64,000 bases of DNA from an uncultured bacterium (GTDB lineage Bacteria > Chloroflexota > UBA5177 > JANWHV01): positions 1,056,001 to 1,120,000 of the forward strand of contig CAVSOU010000010.1 of the NCBI GenBank assembly GCA_963729625.1, read 5' to 3'. The position numbers were made by a program, and so were the translations under genes. Shown here piece by piece: positions 4,216 through 38,431 of the stretch. The notes beneath the pieces are model-generated. The model worked only from the letters and a program-made list of their open reading frames with translations, did not search any database and was not told the DNA's origin. Each line of letters begins with the position of its first letter. Positions within the stretch are counted from its first letter, which is position 1.

Positions 4216-6912
4216 ATGGACTATGACGCCCTGGTGGTCGGAGCCGGGATCGGCGGCATGGAATCGGCACTGAAGCTCGGCGACATGGGCTACAGCGTGT
4301 TGCTGATCGAGAAGGAAGCCAGCGTGGGCGGCAAGATGATCCTGCTCAGCAAGGTCTTCCCTACGCTGGACTGCGCCAGCTGCATTTCCACGCCGAAGAT
4401 GGGCGCCGCCATCCATCACCCCAACATAACAGTGCTCACTCACTCCGAAGTGGATCAGATCCGGCGAGATGATAGCGGCCACTTTCGAGCAAAGATCCGC
4501 CGGAAGCCAAGCTTCGTAGATGAGGCTTTGTGCACGGGCTGCCGCGACTGCGAGATGGCCTGCAGCGTATCAGCGCCCGACCAGTTCAACGCCGGTATGG
4601 TGTCGCGCCGCGCAGCCTACATCGCATTCCCGCAGGCGGTACCGAAGAAAGCGGTGATCGAACGAGCAGGCACCTCACCCTGCACCTTTGAATGTCCTGC
4701 CGGCATCAAGGCGCACGGCTACGTCTCCCTGGTGCGCAGCGGCGAATACGAGAAGGCCTTCGCCCTCGTGCTCGAAGCCACTCCCCTGGTCGGAAGCTTG
4801 GGCCGTGCCTGCTACGCGCCCTGCGAGAGCGCCTGCAGCCGGTCAAGACTTGAAGGACCACTCGCTATCCGGCGCTTGAAGCGCTTCATCGCCGACACGC
4901 ATTACTGCGGGCGCGCGGAAACTTTGGTGTCAGCGCCGCCGCCGAATGGCAAGCGGGTAGCGGTCGTCGGCTCCGGCCCCGCTGGCCTGACTGCGGCCTG
5001 GCAATTGGCGCGGCAAGGCCACGGCGTGAAGATCTTTGAAGCCGCGCCGGAGCCCGGCGGCATGTTGCGCCTGGCCATCCCCGACTACCGGTTGCCGAGC
5101 ACGGTCGTCGAGCAGGATATCGCGAATGTGACCGCCATCGGTGTGGAGATCGCCACGAATACGCGCGTGGAGAATCTGGAGGATCTCAAAACCCAGGGTT
5201 ACGACGCCATCCTGCTGGCGACCGGCACACCTCGCGCCGTCGGCTTGCAGGCTCCCGGCGGCGATCTGCCGGGCATCACCAGCGCCCTCGCCTTCCTTCG
5301 TGCCGTCAAGCTCGGCGAACCCATGGATTATCACGGCAAGACCGTGACCGTGATCGGCGGCGGCAACGTAGCTATCGACGCCGCGCGCAGCGCCCGCAGA
5401 CTGGGCGCGGCGGCTGTGCACATGGTCAGCTTGGAATCGCGGCCGGAAATGCCCGCGCACACATTCGAGGTTGAGGAGGCGCTGGCGGAAGGCATCGTCC
5501 TGCACAACTCCTGGGGCGTCCGGCAGTTCCGCGGCGAGAACGCGGTGGAAGGCCTCGAGCTGCGCCGCTGCACGACCGTATTCGACGCCGATCGACGCTT
5601 CAACCCTCAGTATGACGAGAGCACATTCCGGGATCTCCCCAGCGATGTGGTGATCCTGGCTGTAGGCATGAGCGCGGATACGATTGCCTTCGCCTCGTCG
5701 CTTGGGATTAACCGGAACAAGACGCTTCAGGCAGATCCAGGCACCTTGCAGACAACTTTGCCCTACGTCTTTGCGGCCGGCGACGTGGTGTCCGGTCCGT
5801 CGATGATTACCAGTGCGGTCGGCCAAGGCCGGCGTGCTGCCTTTATGATCGACCGCTGGCTGCAGGGCCGAGAGCTGGACGTCAAGGCCTTCGAGACGAT
5901 GCTGCCCGTCGTGGAGCAGATTGACGTGCTGCGGCGGCAAGTCCATTTCGCGCGTCGCGAGCCGCTCCCCGGGGTTGCGGTTGAAGGCGCACCGTCCGAC
6001 ATGGCGGAGCTGGAACCTCCGCTCACCGAGGAGGAAGCGCGCTACAGCGCCGGACGCTGTCTGGACTGCGGCATCTGCTCGGAGTGCCATCAGTGCCTGG
6101 ATGCCTGCCCCGCGGGCGCCATCGACCTGAACATGCCTGAACGCGAGTTCGAGGCCGAGGTGGGCACGGTGGTGCTCGCCACCGGGTTCAGTCTCTTCCC
6201 GGCTGACCTCAAGCCACAGTACGGCTTCGGAAGATTCAAGAACGTGATCACCGGCATGCAGATGGACCGCCTGCTGGCACCCACCCGCCCCTACAACTCC
6301 GTGCTGCGGCCGGGTGACGGCAAGGTGCCCGATCGCATCGGCTTCATCATGTGCACCGGCTCGCGCGACAAGACGGTGGGCAACCCCCTCTGTTCCAAAA
6401 TATGTTGCATGTATTCGATCAAGCAGAATCAGCTGATTATGGGCGCCCTGCCGCTGGCGGACGTCACCGTGCACTACATCGACATGCGCGCGGTGGGGAA
6501 TGGGTACGACGAGTTCTACGAGCAGGCCCGTGCCATGGGCGCCAACTTCATCAAGGGGCGGGTAGCCGGGATCACGGAGAAGGAAGATGGCAACCTGATC
6601 CTGCGCTACGAGGACGTCGACAATGGCGGCGTCCTGGCAGAGGCCGAATACGACCTCGTCGTACTGGCGGTGGGCGTGCAGCCGAATCTGGATATTCGCC
6701 GGCTCTTCCCGGGCTCGGATCTGGCCCCGGACGAGTTCGGGTATGTCGACGAACCCGACGAGGATCTCAATCCCGGCTGGACGGGGACGCCGGGCCTCTA
6801 TGTGGCCGGCGCCGCGTCAGGCGCAAAGGATATCCCGGATTCCATTTTGCATGCGGGGGCGGCCGTAGCGCAAGCGGCGGCGCATCTGGAAAGGGCGAGG
6901 GTGCGCGCATGA
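4216..6912 (+). CDS. HdrL-type heterodisulfide reductase A-like flavoprotein with an inserted GltD-like NAD(P)H-binding module
   Basis: HdrA N-part (LVVGAGIGG, KVFPTLDCASC), ferredoxin motif, GltD-like insert (SPCTFECPAG, GRACYAPCESAC, VVGSGPAG, VIGGGNVA), then HdrA C-part (CTGSR..CSKICCMYSIKQ, KDIPDS). Confidence 0.88.
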   Translation: MDYDALVVGAGIGGMESALKLGDMGYSVLLIEKEASVGGKMILLSKVFPTLDCASCISTPKMGAAIHHPNITVLTHSEVDQIRRDDSGHFRAKIRRKPSFVDEALCTGCRDCEMACSVSAPDQFNAGMVSRRAAYIAFPQAVPKKAVIERAGTSPCTFECPAGIKAHGYVSLVRSGEYEKAFALVLEATPLVGSLGRACYAPCESACSRSRLEGPLAIRRLKRFIADTHYCGRAETLVSAPPPNGKRVAVVGSGPAGLTAAWQLARQGHGVKIFEAAPEPGGMLRLAIPDYRLPSTVVEQDIANVTAIGVEIATNTRVENLEDLKTQGYDAILLATGTPRAVGLQAPGGDLPGITSALAFLRAVKLGEPMDYHGKTVTVIGGGNVAIDAARSARRLGAAAVHMVSLESRPEMPAHTFEVEEALAEGIVLHNSWGVRQFRGENAVEGLELRRCTTVFDADRRFNPQYDESTFRDLPSDVVILAVGMSADTIAFASSLGINRNKTLQADPGTLQTTLPYVFAAGDVVSGPSMITSAVGQGRRAAFMIDRWLQGRELDVKAFETMLPVVEQIDVLRRQVHFARREPLPGVAVEGAPSDMAELEPPLTEEEARYSAGRCLDCGICSECHQCLDACPAGAIDLNMPEREFEAEVGTVVLATGFSLFPADLKPQYGFGRFKNVITGMQMDRLLAPTRPYNSVLRPGDGKVPDRIGFIMCTGSRDKTVGNPLCSKICCMYSIKQNQLIMGALPLADVTVHYIDMRAVGNGYDEFYEQARAMGANFIKGRVAGITEKEDGNLILRYEDVDNGGVLAEAEYDLVVLAVGVQPNLDIRRLFPGSDLAPDEFGYVDEPDEDLNPGWTGTPGLYVAGAASGAKDIPDSILHAGAAVAQAAAHLERARVRA

Positions 6913-8648
6913 GCGGCAAGAGGATAGGCGTCTACGTCTGTCACTGCGGCGGTAACATCTCCGATTACGTGGACACTGATCAGGTAGTGGCCGAAGCCCT
7001 GGCGGAGGAGGACGTGGTGATTGCCAGGTCCGCCATGTTCACGTGCTCGGACGCCACCCAGCAGGAGATTGTCAACGACATCCAGGAGCACCAGCTCGAC
7101 GGCCTGGTCGTGGCTTCCTGCTCGCCCAAGCTGCACACCTTCACCTTTCGCGAAGTCGCCAGACGTGCCGGTCTGAATCCCTTCCAGTACACCCAGGTGA
7201 ATATCCGCGAGCAGTGCTCGTGGGCGCACACGGACGACAAGGATGGGGCTACCTGCAAGGCGGGCTGCCTGGTGCGGGCAGGGATCGGCCGCACGCGGTT
7301 ATCGGAGCCATTGGAGCCGCTCGTGGTGCAAACGGAAGGGAGCGTCCTGGTGGTCGGTGGCGGCGTCGCTGGACTGCGCGCGGCCATTGGTCTGGCCGAG
7401 ATCGGGCTCTCGGTGGTCCTGGTGGAAAAGGAGCCCCGGCTTGGCGGCTGGGTCGGCGCTTTCGGCGACATGTATCCGCATGGCAAGAACGGCAGAGCCC
7501 TGATCGAGCATCTCGTGGCGGAGATTCGCAAGCGGCCGGAGATCACTATCTTCACCAATGCCGAGGTGGTGAATAAGTCGGGCACGCTGGGCAACTACAA
7601 CGCAACCATCGACGTACACGGAGAGTCGCCGGCATCGATTGAGGTGCAGGTGGGCGCGATTGTCGTCGCTACCGGCTTCGACGCCTACACGCCTGAAGCA
7701 GGCGAATACGGCTACGGCATCGATGGCGTGGTCACGCTGCCCGAGTTTAAGAAGCTGACCGACCAGTCGCAAGGCCCATTGATGCGTCACGGCAAGCCGA
7801 TTAAGTCCATCGTCTACATCTACTGCGTCGGTAGCCGGCAGGGCTCGAACGGCAGCCCGGGTAACCCTGGCTGCTCGCGCTACTGCTGCACTGCCGCCGT
7901 GCATGCCTCGCTGACCGTGGCGGCCAAGGACATCAACGCGCGCCAGTACCACCTGTACCGCGATATGCGCACCTACGGCAGGTACGAGACACTCTACAGC
8001 GAGTCGCGCGAGAATGGATCGCTCTATCTTAAGTTTGCCGACGACACGCCGCCGACGGTAAGTCGGGACAGCAGTACCGGCAGGCTCACCGTAACGGTAA
8101 GAGATCTCCTGACCGGTGGTGAAGAGATCGCCATTCCGGCAGAGCTTGTGGTCCTGGTCACCGGCATGATGCCGCGCCCCGTCGAGGAACTCGTCGATGT
8201 GCTCAAGCTTCCGCTGGGCAAAGACGGCTTCTTCCATGAGATTCACCCCAAGCTACGGCCGGTCGAGACCGTGGTTGACGGCGTCTTAATCTGCGGCACC
8301 TGTCAAGGACCCAAGAACGCGGCTGAAAGCGTGGCCTCCGCACTGGCCGCGGTGACCCAAAGCGCGGCAATGCTGAAGAAAGGGTATGCCGAGCTGGATC
8401 CACAGGTCGCGCGCGTCAATGCCGAGGTTTGTATCTGGTGCGGCAAATGTCAGGAGGCCTGCCCGTATGGCGCGGTAGGCCTGCTCCATCTCGACGGCAG
8501 AGATAGTGCCGTGGTCGACGCTGCCGGCTGCAAGGGCTGCGGCGGCTGCGTGCCTGTCTGCCCGAACGATGCCATCGACCTCCTGGGTTACAGCGATGCC
8601 CAGGTCAGGGCCATGATCGATGGACTGCTGAAGGAGCGCGTGTCATGA
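6909..8648 (+). CDS. hdrA: heterodisulfide reductase subunit A-like protein
   Basis: ATG 6909 (ATGA overlap). IGVYVCHCGGNI, VVASCSPKLH, NIREQCSWAH, CVGSR..CSRYCC, HPKLRPVET and C-terminal 2x[4Fe-4S] motifs. Confidence 0.9.
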   Translation: MSGKRIGVYVCHCGGNISDYVDTDQVVAEALAEEDVVIARSAMFTCSDATQQEIVNDIQEHQLDGLVVASCSPKLHTFTFREVARRAGLNPFQYTQVNIREQCSWAHTDDKDGATCKAGCLVRAGIGRTRLSEPLEPLVVQTEGSVLVVGGGVAGLRAAIGLAEIGLSVVLVEKEPRLGGWVGAFGDMYPHGKNGRALIEHLVAEIRKRPEITIFTNAEVVNKSGTLGNYNATIDVHGESPASIEVQVGAIVVATGFDAYTPEAGEYGYGIDGVVTLPEFKKLTDQSQGPLMRHGKPIKSIVYIYCVGSRQGSNGSPGNPGCSRYCCTAAVHASLTVAAKDINARQYHLYRDMRTYGRYETLYSESRENGSLYLKFADDTPPTVSRDSSTGRLTVTVRDLLTGGEEIAIPAELVVLVTGMMPRPVEELVDVLKLPLGKDGFFHEIHPKLRPVETVVDGVLICGTCQGPKNAAESVASALAAVTQSAAMLKKGYAELDPQVARVNAEVCIWCGKCQEACPYGAVGLLHLDGRDSAVVDAAGCKGCGGCVPVCPNDAIDLLGYSDAQVRAMIDGLLKERVS

Positions 8649-30015: not shown

Positions 30016-33000
30016 TCACGGATTGTCCACGGCCGCCTCGTTGGAGCCCACGGGCGACGGCACCACGGCCACTACCCGATGGTCTGCCGTGCGGATGATG
30101 GTCACGGCGTTGCCGCCGATGCTGGCCACGTACACGTATTTTCCGTCCGCCGTCACGTCGGGGCCGTGCGGCTGCGCCGCCACCGGCAGCGTTGCGATGA
30201 CGTTGCGGCGCGCGGCATCGATCACGCTGACCTGGTTGCCCAGCTGATCGGCCACATACACGGTGCGCCCGTCCGGCGTCACCACCAGCAAGGCCGGGCC
30301 CTTCCCTACCGGGACGGTCGCCACCACCCGCAGCGTGCGCTCGTCGATGACCGAGACATCGTTGGCGGTCTGATTAGCGACCCAGACCTCGTGGCGCGGC
30401 CCATCCACGGCCACGCCGTAGGCGCCCGGCGCGGTGATCACGGTCCGGACCGGTGTGAGTGTCGTGGTGTCCACGGTGTAGATCCAGGCGCCGCCGGCGC
30501 AGGCCACGAACACGGTCTTGCCGTCTTCCGCGATGTCGATGCCATGGGGCTCGAAGCAGGTACCGTCGGGGAATTCGATCTGTTTGCTCTTGCCTGTCGT
30601 CAAATCGAGCACGGAGAGATCGTTGGAGCGGAAGTTCGTCACGAAGGCCCGCCGTTGATCGGGTGTGAAGACCACGTGGGCGGGTCCCAGGCCTACCGCA
30701 AAGGTGCGTACCACGCGCATGTCGCGCAGATCGATCTGGGACACCGTGCCGGGGTCGGCCCCGAAGTTGGTCACGAAGGCATAGGGTGTGCCGTCCAGTA
30801 CATCGACGCCGTGGGCCTGCACACCGGTATGCAGGACCGGCCCGCCCAGCTTGCGTACGCCGTTCGAGCCCATCTCCGTCACCAGCACCGTGTAGGGCAG
30901 GGCGCGGGAGAGCGCTAGGTTGTACGCCTGGCCGAGGTTGGTTGAACGTGCCGGCAGGCCCGCTGGATTGGTCCCGGTCCGCGGCGTGAGTAAACGCATG
31001 GATCCGCTCAGCGGCACGTAGTACGTGACCTGGTTGAGTGTGACCCAGGCACCGGCACGCTCTGCCTGGATGGTGAGACCCCAGCGGCCGTTCATGGGTG
31101 CGAAGGCGTTGTGCACGGCCCAGCGCCCGCCGCCCTGCGGCGTGGCCGGCAAGGTCAGGACGCCCATGTCCATGTCCAGCGATTGCGAGAGCAGGCGTAC
31201 CGCGGCGGCTTGCCCAATGCCGGTGAGCGTGAAGCTGTTTGGTGCGCTGATCAGGCCGGGCGACACTGTGGTGTTCACGGTGGACTGGCCAGACTGGTCC
31301 AGGAAGGAGGCGCCCGGCCCCACCAGGAACGCCAACGATAGGTCGCGGAACTCGCTCGGGTCGTCACGCGTGCGCACGAGCACGTCGGCGCGCCACTGTC
31401 CATTCTGGGCCAGGTCGCCCGTGCCGTCATAGCCTCCGGCAGTGGGCGTGGTCTCCACGAAGGTGTAGCCCAGGGACGGTTGTGCCGGCACGCTCAGTCT
31501 GATGCGCACCTGCCCGTCGGTCACTGCGCGGCCTCGCTTCTCCACGATCACGCGGAACTTCGTGCTGCCCAGGGCCGGCGGTGTGATCGTCAGTGTCGCC
31601 CGCAGCACGCCTACTGTGGTACTCCCGCCTATCGCACCAGGCGTCGCCACAGTGGGAGCAGACGTCGCCGACGCAGTTGGCGTGCCAGCAGTTGGCGTCG
31701 GCGTGCTAAAGACCGCGACGGCGGGCGCTGTCTGCCCCATCAACGCCACGCAGAGCAGGACTCCGGTGCCGAGCAGTGGCTCGATGCGCAGGCGGGCGGC
31801 CAGCGATGTGTACCCGCGTGCTGCAGCCGGAGCATCAGATGGTAGCGTTCGCAGCCTGGGGCGTGTCAGGAACACATGCGAGGCGCTGAGCAGCATGATC
31901 GCGCCGATCAGCGCCAGCTTCGCCAACAAGAACCGTCCATAGAGGGTCCCGGTGAGGCGGTCCAGACTGTCCAGATGGACCTGCGCGTTGAACATGCCCG
32001 TGAACGCAGCCGTGGCGACCGCGATGTAGGCGGCGGGCGAAAAGCGGTCCAGCAGCTGCAAGTAGGCGCGCCGGATCGCAGGTGCGCCCACCCGGCTGTC
32101 CGCCGTCAACGCGTGGAGCGCCGGGAGCAGCGCCAGGGCGATGGCCGCCATGCCACCGACCCAGAGGGCCATGGCGAGCAAGTGTAGCCAGTCGAGCAGT
32201 ATCGACGTCACCACCAGTTGTGGCACCGCCGCCGCGTGCCCGGAGCAAGCGATGGCCAGCAAGTAGGCTAGTCCCAGCGTGGTGACGGTCCAACTCACGA
32301 TAGCGCCGGGCGCATCGGTCGTCGTCTCGTCGAGCACGCGTCCGCCCGGCAGATGGCGTCGCGAACCCGCGCCTGCACCGGAGACGGGCCGGCGTGCCCC
32401 GGTTGCCTGGCGCAGGGGCCGGCCGGCCAGCGCGCCGCCCAGCGTTAACACCGCCAGGAAGGACAGCAGCATGCGTGCTAGCCAGTAGGTGCCGTACCGG
32501 GCGCTCAGGATGGCGTCCAGCGTAGTGGACGACGCCACGCCGCTCCAGCCGCTGGCGCCGTAGGCCTGCGTTTCCAGCTCCAGCAACGACGTCACCAGCG
32601 AGGCCAGCAGACCCAGCCGGGCCAGCAGCAGGCAGCGGCGACCGGCGGCCCGTGCGAGGGCGACGAGCGCGCCATGACTCGTGGCAGCGCGTGCGGGGAG
32701 CAGCACCAACACCAGCAGCAGCAGGGCACCGGTCCAGAGCGCCGAGGCCGCCAGCGCCAGCCAGTGTGCCAGCGCCGCCGCTACCGCTGTGCCGTCCAGC
32801 GTGGGGTTTTGCGGCGCGGCGATGGCGCCGACGGCGGCGCTTGGCGTCGTGGCGCCGGGCCCGCCGGCAGTGAAGGTGTAGAAGCCATGCAAGACATGGC
32901 CATCTTGCGCCGAATCGCTGGTCCAGAAGACCGAGCAGATCCCATCGGGTAGGGCCGGCAGCGTGACGTCCATCTGCTCGTTGTTCGCCGGGTCGACCCG

Positions 33001-33237
33001 GCCGGTATCCTGGTTGATCTGCCGGCCCTCTGCGTCGCGGATCTCGATGCGGGAGAGGGCCGGATTGAGTGCCTCATCGAACCAGAAGTGGTAGGTGGCG
33101 GCCTTCACCACGAGATGGCTATCCGGTGCCAACTCGGCGCGCACCAGATGGGCGTGGGCGGCCGCCTGTCCGGGAATGGCGAAGAGTGCGAGCACCACGG
33201 CGCACGCACTGAGACTCACGCGGCGGCATAGTGTCAT
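30016..33237 (-). CDS. copper uptake/resistance fusion: CopC + CopD + two YtkA/FixH-like domains + YVTN-type beta-propeller
   Basis: A|HAHLV..DGHVLHG (CopC); SGHAAA and DWLHLLAMALWVGG (CopD); LDMDMG; seven propeller repeats (e.g. YVADQLGNQVSVID). Confidence 0.85.
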   Translation of the reverse strand: MTLCRRVSLSACAVVLALFAIPGQAAAHAHLVRAELAPDSHLVVKAATYHFWFDEALNPALSRIEIRDAEGRQINQDTGRVDPANNEQMDVTLPALPDGICSVFWTSDSAQDGHVLHGFYTFTAGGPGATTPSAAVGAIAAPQNPTLDGTAVAAALAHWLALAASALWTGALLLLVLVLLPARAATSHGALVALARAAGRRCLLLARLGLLASLVTSLLELETQAYGASGWSGVASSTTLDAILSARYGTYWLARMLLSFLAVLTLGGALAGRPLRQATGARRPVSGAGAGSRRHLPGGRVLDETTTDAPGAIVSWTVTTLGLAYLLAIACSGHAAAVPQLVVTSILLDWLHLLAMALWVGGMAAIALALLPALHALTADSRVGAPAIRRAYLQLLDRFSPAAYIAVATAAFTGMFNAQVHLDSLDRLTGTLYGRFLLAKLALIGAIMLLSASHVFLTRPRLRTLPSDAPAAARGYTSLAARLRIEPLLGTGVLLCVALMGQTAPAVAVFSTPTPTAGTPTASATSAPTVATPGAIGGSTTVGVLRATLTITPPALGSTKFRVIVEKRGRAVTDGQVRIRLSVPAQPSLGYTFVETTPTAGGYDGTGDLAQNGQWRADVLVRTRDDPSEFRDLSLAFLVGPGASFLDQSGQSTVNTTVSPGLISAPNSFTLTGIGQAAAVRLLSQSLDMDMGVLTLPATPQGGGRWAVHNAFAPMNGRWGLTIQAERAGAWVTLNQVTYYVPLSGSMRLLTPRTGTNPAGLPARSTNLGQAYNLALSRALPYTVLVTEMGSNGVRKLGGPVLHTGVQAHGVDVLDGTPYAFVTNFGADPGTVSQIDLRDMRVVRTFAVGLGPAHVVFTPDQRRAFVTNFRSNDLSVLDLTTGKSKQIEFPDGTCFEPHGIDIAEDGKTVFVACAGGAWIYTVDTTTLTPVRTVITAPGAYGVAVDGPRHEVWVANQTANDVSVIDERTLRVVATVPVGKGPALLVVTPDGRTVYVADQLGNQVSVIDAARRNVIATLPVAAQPHGPDVTADGKYVYVASIGGNAVTIIRTADHRVVAVVPSPVGSNEAAVDNP

Positions 33238-33339: not shown

Positions 33340-33726
33340 TCAGATGAGCGAGAAGGTGAACCAGCCTCCGGCGTGGTGACCGTCGTCGGCCGAGATGGTG
33401 TACCAGATCAGGGCATAGGAGCCCTTGGCCAGCTTGGGGACGGTCATGGTCATCTCATGCGCGTTCGAGAAGGAAACCTGGCTGTTCTCGTTATCGTCCT
33501 GACCATGATCGCCCGTGGTCTCGAAGATGCCGATGAAGCTCCCCTTGGGGTTGACCCCCTCGGCGAAAAAGCACTGCACCGCCTTGGGCATGACCTTGAG
33601 CTTGGCGCCGGGTGCGATGTTGCACTTCTGCAGGCTGGCGTGGGCCAGCGCCACGCGCGGCGCCAGGGCGCTCACGCCCAGGACCAAGGCCAGCGCGGCA
33701 AGCCAGCGAGTGAAATGGATGCGCAT
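33340..33726 (-). CDS. copC: CopC family copper-binding protein
   Basis: ATG 33726 after AGGAGG; signal peptide ALA|HASL and C-terminal WYTISADDGHHAGG. Confidence 0.88.
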   Translation of the reverse strand: MRIHFTRWLAALALVLGVSALAPRVALAHASLQKCNIAPGAKLKVMPKAVQCFFAEGVNPKGSFIGIFETTGDHGQDDNENSQVSFSNAHEMTMTVPKLAKGSYALIWYTISADDGHHAGGWFTFSLI

Positions 33727-33957
33727 GTGACTTCCTCCTGATCGAGATGCCCTTGAAGGGCTCATGTGAGGCAAGAGACGAGGTAGCCGTTATCGAGCAG
33801 CGCGCTGCCCGTTTGTCAGCCCGAGGTCATCGCGCTGCAGACCCGCAGCGACGCGGTGCAGTCAACCACCGGCCCACGCGATACCGTGCTGAGGCCAGGC
33901 AAATCCTGACCGGCTGCATGTGGCTTGTGTCGGCGGCGAGGGGTGGTGTGGCGACGC

Positions 33958-34737
33958 TCAGACCGGCGGCGGTCGCGAAAGCGCACCGGGGCCGCACAAG
34001 CGACTGAGCTGGGCTTGAAGCGGCACCACGGGGAAGTGAACGCGGCGCGGCGCCTGTAGGGCCCGTCTGAGCAGTCGGCGCAGTGCGCTGATCACTGCCT
34101 GCAGCGCCACCAAACGGTATTCGAGCCGCCAGACTAGCAGCGCAAGCAGGAGTGCCACCACGAGGTGCACGGGCAGGACAGGAAGCGTGCTCTGCACCGC
34201 CATGTCCATGGGCACGCTATGCATGCGCATGGCAACGGTCATCGGCAGGCAGCGCTCGGCGAGCGCGTACAGGGCGACCTGGCTTGCCAGGAGTGTCACG
34301 AACAGCGCAACCAGGCGTCCGCGGTGCAGCGGGGTTCGAGGTAGCGCCGGTGAGAGCACTGGCAGGTTCCGCGCGATCAGGGTGAGGCTGCGCTGCTGGT
34401 GACGCAGCGCGCGCAGTTCGCACCACACGGCGAGCAACGTCAGCAGAGCGGCGACGAACACCACCAGGAGTCCGCCCCGCACCGGGCAATGCGCCAGCAT
34501 GAATGCCAGCGACGCCTGCCGCCCGTCGACAGTACCCAACCCCACGTGGTATTCGACGACGTGGACGAGCGCCGCGCCCAGACCGGCAGAGCACAGCAGC
34601 GCGCCTGTCCCTGCGGTGAGCACAACCGTGCCGGCACCGGCGCGCATGCGCGGCAGCGGGAACCAGACGGCCTGTGCGAAACGGGTGCTTGAAGAAGCCG
34701 GCTCGGAGCGGGAAGGATCCATACTCATAGTATGCAT
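33958..34737 (-). CDS. membrane protein with a C-terminal RPPP motif (candidate arrest-peptide leader)
   Basis: About 4 hydrophobic segments, His/Cys/Met patches, ends ...LSRPPPV-stop, upstream of copC. Start uncertain (34737/34728/34722). Confidence 0.7.
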   Translation of the reverse strand: MHTMSMDPSRSEPASSSTRFAQAVWFPLPRMRAGAGTVVLTAGTGALLCSAGLGAALVHVVEYHVGLGTVDGRQASLAFMLAHCPVRGGLLVVFVAALLTLLAVWCELRALRHQQRSLTLIARNLPVLSPALPRTPLHRGRLVALFVTLLASQVALYALAERCLPMTVAMRMHSVPMDMAVQSTLPVLPVHLVVALLLALLVWRLEYRLVALQAVISALRRLLRRALQAPRRVHFPVVPLQAQLSRLCGPGALSRPPPV

Positions 34738-35186
34738 GGTTATCCGTTGTCACTTCGGGCACGCACCCGTGTAGCCTGCGCGAACGGCATCTTCACGGTT
34801 TGCTTGAGACCGCACACCCCCGCCGCGCCGCCGGCTATGCGGCCACATATCGCCCAAGCTTTGGGGCCAGAAAGCGATCAAGGTGACAGGCCGGCGCGTC
34901 CACGGCAGACGAAGACGTCCGCGCCCCCAGAATCGTGCCGTTCGATGGAGATCCCGTCGAGTCTTCACTCTGCCCCCCATGGCAGCGCCCGCGGGCGCTG
35001 CCGCCTCCGCACATGAAAACGCCGCTCGTCCGGCCGCAGCCGGCGAGCCCCCACCGCTGTGAGGATCGACTGCCATCCGCAGCTGGAGGCTATTTTTCAG
35101 CCTCGGCGCCATAGGCCTCCTTGGCAGCGGGTGTGACAGTGCGATAACCTCACCGTGCGCGTTAGAATTCGATTCCAGGGGGTATT

Positions 35187-36221
35187 GTGGCAATTCCACT
35201 GCTCAGCACGACACGAAACGAGGTCGTTGAGCGCCTGGAGCGCGGTCATTGCGTCATTGCCGATGCTTCGGGATCGGTCATCTGGTCCGTGGGCAACCCC
35301 GACCACGTCACGTACCTCCGATCTTCAGCCAAGCCCTTGCAGGCAGCCGCACTTGTGCTGAGCGGCGCCATCGAGCGTTTCGGTCTGGCCGACGCAAATG
35401 TCGCCGTAGCCTGCGGCTCGCACCGCGGTGAGCCGGGCCACGTGCGCGCTGTGCTGGACACGCTCAGCCGGGCCGGTGTAAGCCCCGACGCGCTCGGCTG
35501 CGGGACTCACCCGCTGAATCACGCCGAGGGTTTCCGGCTGGCGGCTGACGGGCAGACTCCCACGCCGCTGCACAACAACTGCTCAGGCAAACACGCGGGC
35601 ATGTTGGCGGCGGCCACCGCGCTTGGCGCTCCTATCGACACCTATCTGGATCCCGCTCATCCTGTCCAGCGGCAGATACTGGACACGGTGGCGACATGCG
35701 CCGGCGTGCCTGCCGCGTCCATACACGTGGGCATCGACGGCTGCAGCGCGCCCAACTTCGCACTGCCGATGCGCACGATAGCCCGCTGTTTCGCAAACAT
35801 CGCCAGGGCGAACGATTTGCCGGCGGACCTTTGCGGGGCGCTTGCGTGTGTGCGATCCGCCATGCAGGCCCAGCCATGGTTCGTCTCGGGCACCGGACAG
35901 TTCGACACGCTGGTCATGGACGCGATGCCGGGTGCAGTCATAGCGAAGGGCGGCGCTGAGGCACTGCATTGCGTCGCCCTGCCGAGCCTCGGCCTGGGTG
36001 TCGCGGTGAAGTTTGAGAGCGGCAGGCCCGACGGCATCGCGTCCATTGTGCTGGCAATCCTGCGTGCCGCAGGCGTCTTCGGGTCCAGTTTGCCCAGCAG
36101 CCTGCAACCCTTCTACCGGCCCGTGGTACTCAACCACCGAGAGATAGTCGTGGGAAGGACGCAGGTGCTCATCGATGAGGCACTGTCGAAACTTCGTGAG
36201 CTAAATCTCGCGCGGGCCTGA
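35187..36221 (+). CDS. L-asparaginase, Rhizobium etli-type (Asparaginase_II family)
   Basis: RSSAKPLQA, SHRGE, HNNCSGKHAG, DGCSAP and KGGAE motifs. Confidence 0.9.
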   Translation: MAIPLLSTTRNEVVERLERGHCVIADASGSVIWSVGNPDHVTYLRSSAKPLQAAALVLSGAIERFGLADANVAVACGSHRGEPGHVRAVLDTLSRAGVSPDALGCGTHPLNHAEGFRLAADGQTPTPLHNNCSGKHAGMLAAATALGAPIDTYLDPAHPVQRQILDTVATCAGVPAASIHVGIDGCSAPNFALPMRTIARCFANIARANDLPADLCGALACVRSAMQAQPWFVSGTGQFDTLVMDAMPGAVIAKGGAEALHCVALPSLGLGVAVKFESGRPDGIASIVLAILRAAGVFGSSLPSSLQPFYRPVVLNHREIVVGRTQVLIDEALSKLRELNLARA

Positions 36222-36359: not shown

Positions 36360-37565
36360 ATGTCGCCTGTCTTGTCGCACTCACCGGACGGAGACATTCC
36401 GGCAGTTGTGGAGCGCGGCGAGTTGCCGGCGCTCTTTGAGGCGCTGGTCACGCGTGGGTACGCCCTGATAGGGCCGACCGTGCGCGACAACGCCATTACA
36501 TACGGCGATCTGGCCACGGTCGATGACCTGCCAGTTGGCTGGACTGACGAGCAAAATGCAGGCACGTACCGGCTCGCGCACCGTGACGACGGCGCGCTGT
36601 TTGGCTATACCGTAGGACCCCACAGCTGGAAACAGCTGCTCTGGCCTCCGCGCGTGCAGCTGATGCGTGCCCGCCGTGAGAACGGCGTGCTGTCCTTCTA
36701 TCAGGATGACCCAGCGCCCGCAAAGATGGCCTTTATCGGTGTGCGCGCGTGCGAATTGCACGCGATGTCCATCCAGGACAAAGTGTTCTTGCAGGGGCAG
36801 TACCAGGATCCAATCTATGCGGCGCGGCGCGGCGGCGCGTTTATCGTCGCCGTGAACTGCGGCCTGGCGGGGGGGACCTGCTTTTGTGCCTCGATGCACA
36901 CCGGACCTCGCGCGGACGCCGGTTTTGACCTGGCGTTGACCGAGGTTCTGGAAGCCGGTCGGCACTACTTTGTGGTGGAGACGGGGTCAGACGCGGGACG
37001 CGAGGTGCTTCAGAATATCCCGAACCGCGGCGCGAGTCAGGCCGAGCAAGAGGCGGCCTCAGGTATCGTCGCCCGTACCGCTGAGTCGATGGGCCGCACG
37101 CTCGATATGGACGGCCTCCAGGAATTCCTGTACGCGAACCACGACAACCCGCGTTGGGACGCCGTGGCGGATCGCTGCCTGAGTTGCGCGAGCTGCACGA
37201 TGGTATGCCCGACCTGCTTCTGTATGTCGGTGGAGGATGTGACAGATCTGAAGGGCGGTATGGCCGAGCGTTATCGCGTGTGGGCGTCGTGCTTCAGCAT
37301 TTATTACTCATACATTCATGGCGGCAGCGTGCGACGGTCAGTGAAAGCCCGCTATCGCCAGTGGCTGACACACAAGCTCGCCACGTGGGCTGAACAATTT
37401 GGCGTTCCGGGCTGCGTGGGATGCGGCCGATGCATCACCTGGTGTCCGGTGAGCATCGACATTACCGAAGAGGTGCGAGCTATGCGGCCGAGCTCCGCTG
37501 AGCCGAACCTCGCAGGCCGGCACGGAGGGGCTGCCGCGCGGACTGGAAGGGGGAACGTTCAGTGA
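36360..37565 (+). CDS. hydB: group 3b [NiFe]-hydrogenase (sulfhydrogenase) beta subunit, 4Fe-4S
   Basis: [29 protein letters not shown] and [13 protein letters not shown] motifs. Confidence 0.88.
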
Positions 37566-38431
37566 GCACGACCGTGCTGGAAGCTCGACCGGCTGACGCG
37601 GTGCAACCCATGCTGCCCAGACCGTATGTCGTTGCGCGCGTGCACAAGGACACGGCGGACACGTTTACGCTCGAAATCCACTCGCTCGACGGCCAGGGTC
37701 TCGTCTACGCCCCCGGCCAGTTCACGATGCTCTACGCGTTCGGCGTCGGCGAGGTGCCGATATCGATCAGCGGCGACCCCGCCAAGACCGATCCATTGGT
37801 GCAGACGATTCGCGCCGTGGGTCCCGTGTCGAAGGCGCTTACCGATGTAAAGCGCGACGAGATGATCGGCGTGCGTGGCCCGTTTGGCAGTCACTGGCCG
37901 GTCGAGGAGGCCGTGGATCATGATGTGCTGCTCATGGCCGGCGGCATCGGCTTGGCGCCACTTCGCCCTGCCCTCTACTACTTGCTCGCGCACCGCGACC
38001 GCTTCCGGCGTATCACGCTCCTCTACGGGAGCCGCACGCCCGCTGATCTCCTCTACCGTCAGGAGCTGGAGCGCTGGCGCGGACGACTCGATCTGGACGT
38101 GTCTGTGACGGTCGACAACGCCACCACGACCTGGCCGGTGTGGCGCGGCGGTGTCGGCGTGGTCACCACGCTCATCCCAAGGGCGCACTTCGATCCGGAT
38201 TCCACGATCGCCATGATTTGCGGGCCAGACATCATGATGCGCTACAGCGCCAGGGATTTGCAACAGCTCGGCGTGAGCGCTCAGAAGATTTTTCTGTCCA
38301 TCGAGCTCAACATGCAGTGCGGTATCGGCCTGTGCGGTCACTGCCAGTTCGGACCGACGTTTGTTTGCAAGAATGGACCGGTCTACCGCCTCGACAAGGT
38401 GGCCCACCTGCTGGCGAAACGGGAGATTTGA
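37562..38431 (+). CDS. hydG: group 3b hydrogenase gamma subunit (FAD/NAD(P)-binding, 2Fe-2S)
   Basis: [30 protein letters not shown] and [12 protein letters not shown] motifs. Confidence 0.88.

Follow-up and report, generated by a model that had tools for sequence, protein, structure and literature searches.

A four-helix membrane protein ending in RPPP as a candidate ribosome-arrest leader of a copper operon in an uncultured Chloroflexota bacterium

The first gene of a copper operon in an uncultured Chloroflexota bacterium encodes a membrane protein that terminates in the residues Arg-Pro-Pro-Pro-Val (RPPPV). Here we argue that this gene, referred to below as the leader, is probably a RAPP-like ribosome-arrest leader that also acts as the copper sensor for the genes that follow, copC and a copC-copD fusion (copCD); judged from sequence, we put the probability of this explanation at about 60%. 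The leader is located in a stretch of 64,000 nucleotides (nt), the window (GenBank assembly GCA_963729625.1, contig CAVSOU010000010.1, positions 1,056,001 to 1,120,000 of the forward strand), to which all positions given without a further label refer. Within this explanation, the stall, the role of copper as its signal, the sign of the response and the involvement of Rho are inferred. A sequence-only reading of the same DNA had proposed such a role, and the literature on RAPP-type arrest to which it referred (CruR, ApdA and ApdP) proved to be real. The features of the leader are:

33958..34737, minus strand: leader (candidate sensor) gene, encoding a membrane protein of 259 amino acids (aa) with four predicted helices and the end LSRPPPV-stop (open reading frame, ORF, and its translation)
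33964..33975, minus strand: codons CGA CCG CCG CCG of R255-P256-P257-P258, the putative ribosome-arrest motif, one codon ahead of the stop codon (conservation)
33976..33993, minus strand: codons of G249-P-G-A-L-S254, a conserved stretch 5' of the motif (column counts)
34485..34563, minus strand: residues 59-84 (HVVEYH ... AHC) in outward loop 1, a patch that may bind metal (conservation and positive-inside count)
34200..34245, minus strand: residues 165-179 (PMTVAMRMHSVPMDM) in outward loop 3, a Met-rich beta-hairpin that may bind Cu(I) (conservation and strands of the structural model)

Relatives of the leader were collected with a word-indexed search, and then with a profile of 13 relatives that was run against 1.84 billion representatives. 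The word-indexed search returned 10 leader homologues with 49-72% identity, and the profile yielded 94 proteins with a cut-off of E<=1e-3, of which 63 remained at E<=1e-10 and 42 at E<=1e-30; a word-limited protein search with an alignment of 51 sequences contributed few further relatives. The family comprises 94 representative clusters (50% identity), mostly from uncultured soil Chloroflexota/Dormibacterota, and the source names of the homologues were all returned as "hypothetical protein". Sampling of 401 genomes of the phylum showed the close form of the leader in 7. A distant subfamily (HxxEY...QENLE...RPPP) accounts for 39 loci in Candidatus Dormibacterota/Dormibacteraeota, Chloroflexota and a few Actinomycetota (Acidimicrobiales, Microthrixaceae). 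The G+C content of the leader by codon position (0.75/0.50/0.79) is like that of the neighbouring genes. According to these comparisons, the leader gene is real and conserved, and is a member of a family that has no name.

The C-terminal motif is the feature that stands out in this family. The leader ends in GPGALSRPPPV, followed by a TGA stop codon at 33960-33958, which places the R-x-P-P core at residues 255-258 of 259, as in RAPP-like arrest peptides, in which the core is situated a few residues before the stop codon. It had been proposed that conservation of the terminal R-x-P-P should be examined, and the motif was found to be invariant in the close relatives (13/13). Eight of 11 sequences reach the C-terminus, seven with LSRPPPx and one with FPRPPPL, and the three others are truncated or frame-shifted. 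Among 51 divergent members, which have a mean column identity of 27%, the sole invariant columns are H59, P257 and P258, and the columns conserved in at least 90% are G54, P85, Q153, A195, R255 and P256. The 91 new representative hits gave the same picture: 77 carry RxPP, in the form of RPPP (73, of which 71 within the last 25 residues and two with longer tails), RAPP (three) or RSPP (one). The other 14 consist of 11 fragments that end before the tail, one sequence cut inside the motif, one that diverges at "FARP" and one unrelated protein of 4291 aa. RPPP is likewise found at 23 of 27 metagenome loci, with RAPP at one (L038) and the tail absent from three, and at 38 of the 39 genome loci of the distant subfamily; the RAPP of L038 is to be compared with the RPPP of its near-identical sibling L031. 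Thus, RxPP is fixed at R and at the last two P, and its second position is usually taken by P and in rare cases by A or S.

The codons for R-P-P-P vary synonymously among all seven close genomes, indicating that selection acts on the peptide and not on the DNA. The residues that follow the motif vary both in number (1-15 in the 51 sequences) and in sequence, and a conserved motif with a variable tail is what is seen in known arrest peptides. Upstream of the motif the family consensus is G-x-x-[LI]-[FLW]-[SA]-RPPP, with G249 in 44, F/L/W at position 253 in 46 and S/A at position 254 in 38 of the 51 sequences. On the evidence of these alignments, RxPP is the most conserved feature of the leader and is under selection at the level of the peptide. 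RPPP also has the three prolines and the strong residue in front of them that characterize EF-P-dependent polyproline pauses. According to PMC4176338, in tests with Escherichia coli in which EF-P was absent it is the strongest staller of the XPPP motifs, and it is under-represented in that species; a crude count gave 35 RPPP in the noisy ORF set of the host genome, with no clear depletion. The further ORFs with a C-terminal RxPP that were listed in the host genome look like spurious frames.

The motif is attached to a membrane domain that contains candidate copper ligands. The patches HVVEYH (residues 59-64), AHCP (82-85), MTVAMRMHSVPMDM (166-179) and PVHL (189-192), which the sequence-only reading had attributed to a protein with multiple transmembrane (TM) segments, are all present in the translated ORF, as is the LSRPPPV end. 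RAPP-like arrest regulators have an N-terminal targeting or TM segment, and the leader has four hydrophobic segments, which fits the prediction of a four-helix protein with an N-in/C-in topology. The N-tail, loop 2 and the C-tail are rich in Lys and Arg (4, 6 and 9 residues), as compared with loops 1 and 3 (2 and 1); by the positive-inside rule, the His, Cys and Met patches would therefore face outward. In the copC-linked subfamilies (34 sequences), H59, H64, P165, M166 and M170 are invariant and C84, P85, M172 and M179 are conserved in at least 90%, so that the His and Met residues suspected of being conserved among homologues upstream of copC are indeed so. An AlphaFold2 model based on the 13 relatives (mean pLDDT 69.9) has four long helices and a beta-hairpin at 167-180, with strands at 167-172 and 175-180.

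The description of the protein as polytopic and CxxC-less also holds: there are four predicted helices and neither CXXC nor CxxxC. The leader had no match in Pfam or NCBIfam at E<=1, and a Foldseek search of its model against the PDB gave none at E<=0.001 (best E 1.3). The ESM Atlas contains look-alike clusters without names (score 0.94), with Vulcanimicrobiota and Actinomycetota as the commonest phyla, and these are leads only. In the 51 sequences, the Arg of the motif and a conserved Glu located at the inner end of helix 4 are 46-53 residues apart (mean 48.8, standard deviation 2.0). A distance of about 49 residues implies that helix 4 would be in the course of membrane insertion by the time the ribosome arrives at RPPP, a geometry that suits force-dependent release.

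The genes that follow the leader provide the link with copper. Their features are:

33340..33726, minus strand: copC, encoding a periplasmic copper-binding protein of 128 aa (PF04234, E 2.6e-12)
30016..33237, minus strand: gene for a CopC-CopD-YtkA-YncE-like beta-propeller fusion protein of 1073 aa (PF04234, PF05425, PF13115, PF21783, TIGR02276)

The leader, copC and the copC-copD fusion form a unit of three genes, and the leader, like RAPP-like arrest regulators, is thereby followed by co-directional genes with a functional link to it. The order leader-CopC-CopC-CopD fusion is maintained in all seven close genomes, which bears out the expectation that relatives of the leader are located upstream of copC. 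For the "LFARPPP" metagenome group, 36 downstream ORFs were scanned from 20 of the 21 loci with such ORFs (L046 was omitted because its coordinates are the same as those of L045). CopC is among the first two downstream ORFs at 15 of these 20 loci, as the first at 13 and the second at two; at the others, a YncE-like propeller comes first (three loci, two of which continue with a periplasmic binding protein), FecCD follows (one) or there was no hit (one). For the distant subfamily, 25 of the 74 listed downstream ORFs were scanned. Among these, a CopC-CopD(-YtkA) fusion is located downstream at L058, L059, L075, L089 and L091, CopC-containing proteins at L084 and L095, a copper-type P-type ATPase with an HMA domain at L077, and an esterase at L079 and L081.

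As had been noted from the sequence, no copper regulator gene is adjacent to the operon in the window; the neighbours are genes for an L-asparaginase II (upstream, divergent) and an M3 oligopeptidase (downstream, convergent). Of the 21 genomes of the class, 20 have CopD (or 19 of 20 if the unpublished genome G145 is excluded), and the wider profile detects the leader in 10 of the 21, a tally that counts G145 as a non-match. The host genome has four CopD hits and one leader. The frequency of CopD without a leader indicates that the leader is not an obligate CopD subunit. Paralogues of the leader in one genus of the window's class end in LRSPP. Genome G091 of this kind has three distant paralogues (L025, L026 and L027, with L028 and L029 noted alongside), which precede copC-copCD-SCO1, genes for a thioredoxin-like AhpC/TSA protein with MauE/DoxX, and genes for a BNR/Ycf48-like protein with a periplasmic binding protein. 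Thus, the four-helix RxPP module looks portable among operons for extracytoplasmic proteins.

Some of these loci show variations in gene content. The propeller that is fused within the 1073-aa protein of the window is encoded by a separate gene right after the leader, followed by one for a periplasmic binding protein, in L037 and L055, and by a gene standing alone in L051. A protein of 220-250 aa without a Pfam match is encoded between the distant-type leader and the CopC-CopD fusion at many loci of Dormibacterota and Actinomycetota (L058:4263-4988, L089:1609-2280, L091:4192-4860 and similar loci), and it may be an uncharacterised copper-handling protein. A paralogous ORF of 1056 aa with another CopD hit (G000:C8:677466-680636) is not accompanied by a leader of the RPPP family. 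In L010 (genome G003), a gene for a Fur-family regulator (6481-7053, minus strand) is located directly upstream of the leader on the same strand, and adjoins a divergent znuA (7008-7973, plus strand). This regulator, which probably serves zinc uptake, is the sole metal regulator seen beside any leader.

The leader fits the class of RAPP/RGPP arrest proteins of copper genes on each feature that can be tested in a sequence. Proteins of this class have fewer than 300 aa, often contain TM segments and are enriched upstream of copper genes (Chiba group, EMBO J 2025, PMC12992588); the source data of that paper give a 7.2-fold and a 32.7-fold enrichment of RAPP over AAPP for CopC products downstream. 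For its Streptomyces lividans member SLIV_18480, a four-helix protein, a copper site made up of three His and one Met is predicted; this protein arrests ribosomes in vitro, and its R273A variant raised a reporter from ~1.8 to 19 units, about tenfold (PMC12992588). The leader shares with the SLIV_18480 set a size below 300 aa, four predicted helices, His/Met residues, R-x-P-P near the stop codon and a co-directional copper gene. It differs in its RPPP motif, in being from Chloroflexota/Dormibacterota rather than Actinomycetota, and in that arrest is predicted for the leader whereas it has been demonstrated for SLIV_18480; a few RAPP members are also present in the leader family. As to the motif, PMC12992588 reports that in the RAPP core a change of Ala to Gly is permissive, that Ser, Asp and Pro partly keep arrest, and that Arg is irreplaceable. 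The natural variation in the leader family (P, A or S, with R, P and P fixed) mirrors this tolerance.

It should be noted that the novelty of the leader is lower than the sequence-only reading supposed, since comparable four-helix RAPP/RGPP arrest proteins with predicted His/Met copper sites, encoded before copper genes, were published in December 2025 (PMC12992588). The search motifs described in that paper are RAPP and RGPP only, and searches of this design miss the RPPP family. The leader is most likely a translational copper switch of a kind described between 2022 and 2025, here with RPPP in place of RAPP/RGPP.

Two further copper systems suggest how a stall could be passed on to the next gene. 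CruR of Bordetella pertussis (Bp2923) is a DUF2946 protein of 145 aa with CXXC and RAPP that is reported to act independently of its signal peptide (PMC9426467; PMC9973294), and a ribosome stalled on it prevents Rho from terminating transcription in a 162-nt spacer, the stall being relieved by copper (PMC9426467). Like CruR, the leader is the first gene of a copper operon, has a C-proximal RxPP and a long spacer (231 nt in the window), shows an excess of C over G near its end, and is followed by copper-acquisition genes. Unlike CruR, it has no Pfam match and no CXXC, a single conserved Cys and four helices, and dependence on Rho has been demonstrated for CruR but is a guess for the leader. In CutF of Rhodobacter capsulatus, also a DUF2946 protein and a copper sensor that is exported co-translationally, copper binding leads to a stall at PPP and to melting of a stem-loop over the next ribosome-binding site (PMC9973294; 10.1101/2025.02.05.636593), and the PPP motif makes copper regulation EF-P-dependent (10.1101/2025.02.05.636593). 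The short-spacer relatives of the leader resemble CutF in their C-terminal proline-rich motif and in a predicted masking of the next ribosome-binding site that a stall would open. The differences are that CutF contains CxxxC, has a signal peptide that can be cleaved off and regulates a multicopper oxidase, and that the spacer in the window is long and has no predicted stall-dependent unmasking of the Shine-Dalgarno sequence. DUF2946 was ruled out for the leader itself, which has no Pfam family at E<=1, neither CXXC nor CxxxC, a single Cys in HCP, 259 aa and four helices. The leader also resembles ApdA, ApdP and SecM, which combine a motif near the C-terminus (R-A-P-P or R-A-G-P) with an N-terminal targeting segment and are released by pulling force (PMC7897499, PMC10951233, PMC10987492). 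In contrast to the leader, these are followed by genes for Sec/YidC components and, as described in the same sources, sense export activity rather than metal. A Sec/YidC monitoring substrate (SecM, MifM, VemP, ApdA, ApdP) was therefore ruled out, as the downstream genes encode CopC and CopC-CopD.

RNA predictions for relatives with short spacers are in line with a switch of the CutF kind. In the Dormibacterota group (25 loci, spacers of 52-138 nt), a ribosome at RPPP was simulated by occluding in silico the stretch that it would cover. The Shine-Dalgarno sequence of the next gene is mostly paired in the free mRNA (mean unpaired probability 0.16), and with a ribosome on RPPP its accessibility rises by 0.26 on average, by more than 0.1 at 18 of the 25 loci, and falls by more than 0.1 at none. 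Composition-preserving shuffles of the 24-nt stall-site stretch raise accessibility at 20 of the 25 loci, and at 13 loci the native stretch leaves the Shine-Dalgarno sequence less accessible than do at least 95% of the shuffles. In the consensus helix of 10 close loci, GAGGAG is paired with CUCCUC right after the Pro codons, and the GUG start codon with CCAC inside these codons. With RNAalifold on 14 mixed loci the anti-Shine-Dalgarno helix was not recovered, because the distant four misalign. In L010, which belongs to the window's own class, the RPPP codons CCU CCU CCC are predicted to pair directly with the Shine-Dalgarno sequence. The pairings of CUCCUC with GAGGAG and of CCAC with GUG make up a conserved hairpin in the Dormibacterota loci L058-L073, where ~105 nt separate the RPPP codons from the next start codon; this hairpin has an inner GUGAGC-UUCG-GCUCAC stem-loop and shows no covariation.

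In the window the leader and copC are separated by a long spacer, with the following features:

33727..33957, minus strand: untranslated spacer of 231 nt, from the leader stop codon to copC (sequence)
33898..34047, minus strand: C-rich, G-poor stretch over the motif and the first part of the spacer, a possible Rho loading site (base composition)
33734..33785, minus strand: CU-rich tract, hairpin and Shine-Dalgarno region (sequence)

This spacer, which ends at the copC ATG (33726) and has 65% G+C, corresponds to the GC-rich gap of about 230 nt in the earlier description. The CU-rich tract (TACCTCGTCTCTTGCCTC, 33785-33768) and the small GCCC/GGGC hairpin (33761-33749) described before the AGGAGG sequence (33739-33734) are present, but neither statistically unusual nor conserved. 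The copC Shine-Dalgarno sequence is predicted to be largely sequestered by the local CU-rich tract (unpaired probability 0.12). No consistent stall-dependent unmasking was found among the long-spacer loci. A long-range helix is predicted in the window, in which the GPGAL codons pair with the copC start codon (start unpaired 0.28, rising to 0.56); it has no counterpart in L008, L011 and L003 and was taken as chance. The spacer scan found no sigma-70-like promoter and no intrinsic terminator, and Rfam gave no match at E<=1 over 33600-35300.

The base composition at the leader end may point to another route. Windows of 60 nt over 33898..34047 have C fractions of 0.43-0.47 and G fractions of 0.23-0.28, and the first 80 nt after the stop codon have C 0.42 and G 0.25, a difference of 0.17; among 2384 long ORFs of the host genome, 2.1% attain this value. 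For the metagenome group, each of the 12 spacers contains more C than G. The host genome has genes for both Rho and EF-P; Rho-like matches were found at G000:C8:431607-432842 (636 bits, above the family cut-off) and at G000:C8:868263-869357 (444 bits, inside an open frame of 884 aa). For the long-spacer loci, including the window, we propose with low confidence a CruR-like, Rho-dependent link from the stall to copC.

In the mechanism that we envisage, the leader would be translated from a transcript shared with copC and copC-copD. When the ribosome arrives at R255-P-P-P, one codon before the stop, the formation of peptide bonds between the prolines would stall it. At this point the motif is ~49 residues away from the cytoplasmic end of helix 4, which would be leaving the ribosome and entering the membrane, and both outward loops (HxxEYH...HC and the Met-rich hairpin) would already be outside. 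Binding of copper by these loops, or closure of the helix bundle, would alter the pull on the nascent chain and hence the duration of the stall, and this dwell time would set the expression of copC and copC-copD. In the window, with its long C-rich spacer, the stalled ribosome would most likely act as in CruR by keeping Rho off the RNA; in the short-spacer relatives, it would expose the ribosome-binding site of the next gene, as in CutF or SecM.

Several observations weigh against this explanation. An RPPP motif alone is no guarantee of arrest, and the host has a gene for EF-P, which normally relieves PPP stalls. Among the sequencing runs searched, none with RNA was listed for the locus and the DNA shares were small, and no ribosome-profiling data were found. 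The leader is large, and a good number of its membrane residues are conserved, so it may have a function of its own, and some of its paralogues are situated ahead of operons without an obvious role in copper (thioredoxin-like/MauE; BNR-repeat protein and binding protein). The linker from helix 4 to RPPP varies in length no less than the remaining protein does (coefficient of variation ~4% for both), and we regard its geometry as permissive rather than probative for stalling. As to the RNA, it had been suggested that folding of the spacer be examined, and no special structure emerged: the spacer of the window folds no better than shuffled sequence (z = +0.23; local fold +0.33), and a modelled ribosome on RPPP leaves the copC Shine-Dalgarno sequence masked (unpaired probability 0.12 to 0.16), so that no release is predicted. 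The spacers of relatives (57-336 nt) have no common sequence, and only close siblings align. The C-over-G bias is modest, since 17% of random stretches attain it when the maximum over windows is used as the statistic, and it is absent from the first 80 nt in three same-genus relatives. In the short-spacer group, none of the 24 helix pairs of the 10 close loci, which are kin to one another, shows compensatory changes.

The size and conservation of the protein would also be explained if the leader were an ordinary, stable membrane component of copper uptake, for instance a copper-binding or handover partner of CopC/CopD, with RPPP as a docking or turnover signal at the protein level. A protein of 259 residues with four helices and conserved H59, E62, H64, C84, Q153, M166 and others exceeds what a simple leader needs, its outward His/Met/Cys patches resemble a copper site, and its linkage to copC-copCD is tight. 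Since a sensing domain is to be expected in a sensor, size alone is not decisive, and a partner role does not account for RPPP being better conserved than every helix or loop residue except H59, for tails that vary in length and sequence, or for a second position that alone varies, between P, A and S, in a way that matches the tolerance of arrest. In addition, CopD genes are common without a leader, including the three other CopD hits in the host genome, paralogues precede unrelated operons, and at short-spacer loci the mRNA of the motif is predicted to pair with the next ribosome-binding site. We therefore consider this explanation unlikely.

Another possibility keeps the stall but not the sensor, with RPPP as a constitutive, EF-P-dependent brake that fixes the ratio of leader to CopC or ties output to EF-P. 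PPP, and most strongly RPPP, stalls ribosomes lacking EF-P (PMC4176338), EF-P is encoded in the host genome, and the EF-P-dependent copper regulation of CutF through PPP (10.1101/2025.02.05.636593) sets a precedent. A simple brake would not require Arg to be retained so strictly, nor would it tolerate RAPP or RSPP as substitutes, and it leaves unexplained the conserved outward His/Met/Cys loops that accompany copper operons, which makes it distinctly improbable. Finally, in a genome of 63% G+C, where long spurious frames are common, the leader might be a chance ORF and its motif a conserved DNA or RNA element instead of a peptide, and the RPPPV codons can indeed form a small GACCG/CGGUC hairpin. 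This is refuted by homologues at 30-65% identity that keep the frame, by the 94 representative clusters, by motif codons that differ synonymously in each genome, and by a codon-position G+C content as in the neighbouring genes, and we assign it hardly any probability.

Returning to the arrest leader with copper sensing that we favor, the observations may be brought together in a more specific proposal, which we put forward tentatively and regard as rather doubtful in its full form. The family would be a single, plug-in type of extracytoplasmic sensor that is read out by the ribosome, in which copper-dependent closure of the His/Cys loop and the Met hairpin during insertion of helix 4 sets the pull on the RPPP-stalled chain. 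This sensor would have two outputs, namely an mRNA hairpin at the stall site that masks the next ribosome-binding site where spacers are short (Dormibacterota), and Rho attenuation in a long C-rich spacer, as in the window. RPPP would in this case be part polyproline and part RAPP motif, sensitive to both EF-P and force.

Two further features lie near the operon. A perfect 22-bp palindrome (GGCAGCGCCCG/CGGGCGCTGCC) is present at 34981-35002, in the 449-nt region between the start of the leader and the divergent asparaginase gene; its exact matches are confined to the host genome's own loci, and none was found in the relatives fetched. At 36360-38431 (plus strand), genes for a 4Fe-4S dicluster protein (Fer4_22) and then an NAD-binding/Fe-S oxidoreductase subunit adjoin the asparaginase gene and are unrelated to the leader.

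The leader family has consequences for annotation: genes of the RPPP-leader type should not be dismissed as encoding hypothetical proteins, and the gap 3' of them should not be taken as an operon boundary. The family also offers a natural series of R-x-P-P motifs (P, A and S) at one homologous position, a polytopic sensor geometry, with ~49 residues between helix 4 and the motif, that is suited to force-profile experiments, and two apparently different routes from the stall to the next gene. If our explanation is true, a large family without a name would be a translational copper switch that current motif searches skip, and it would account for the regulation of copC-copCD in genomes that have no copper regulator nearby.

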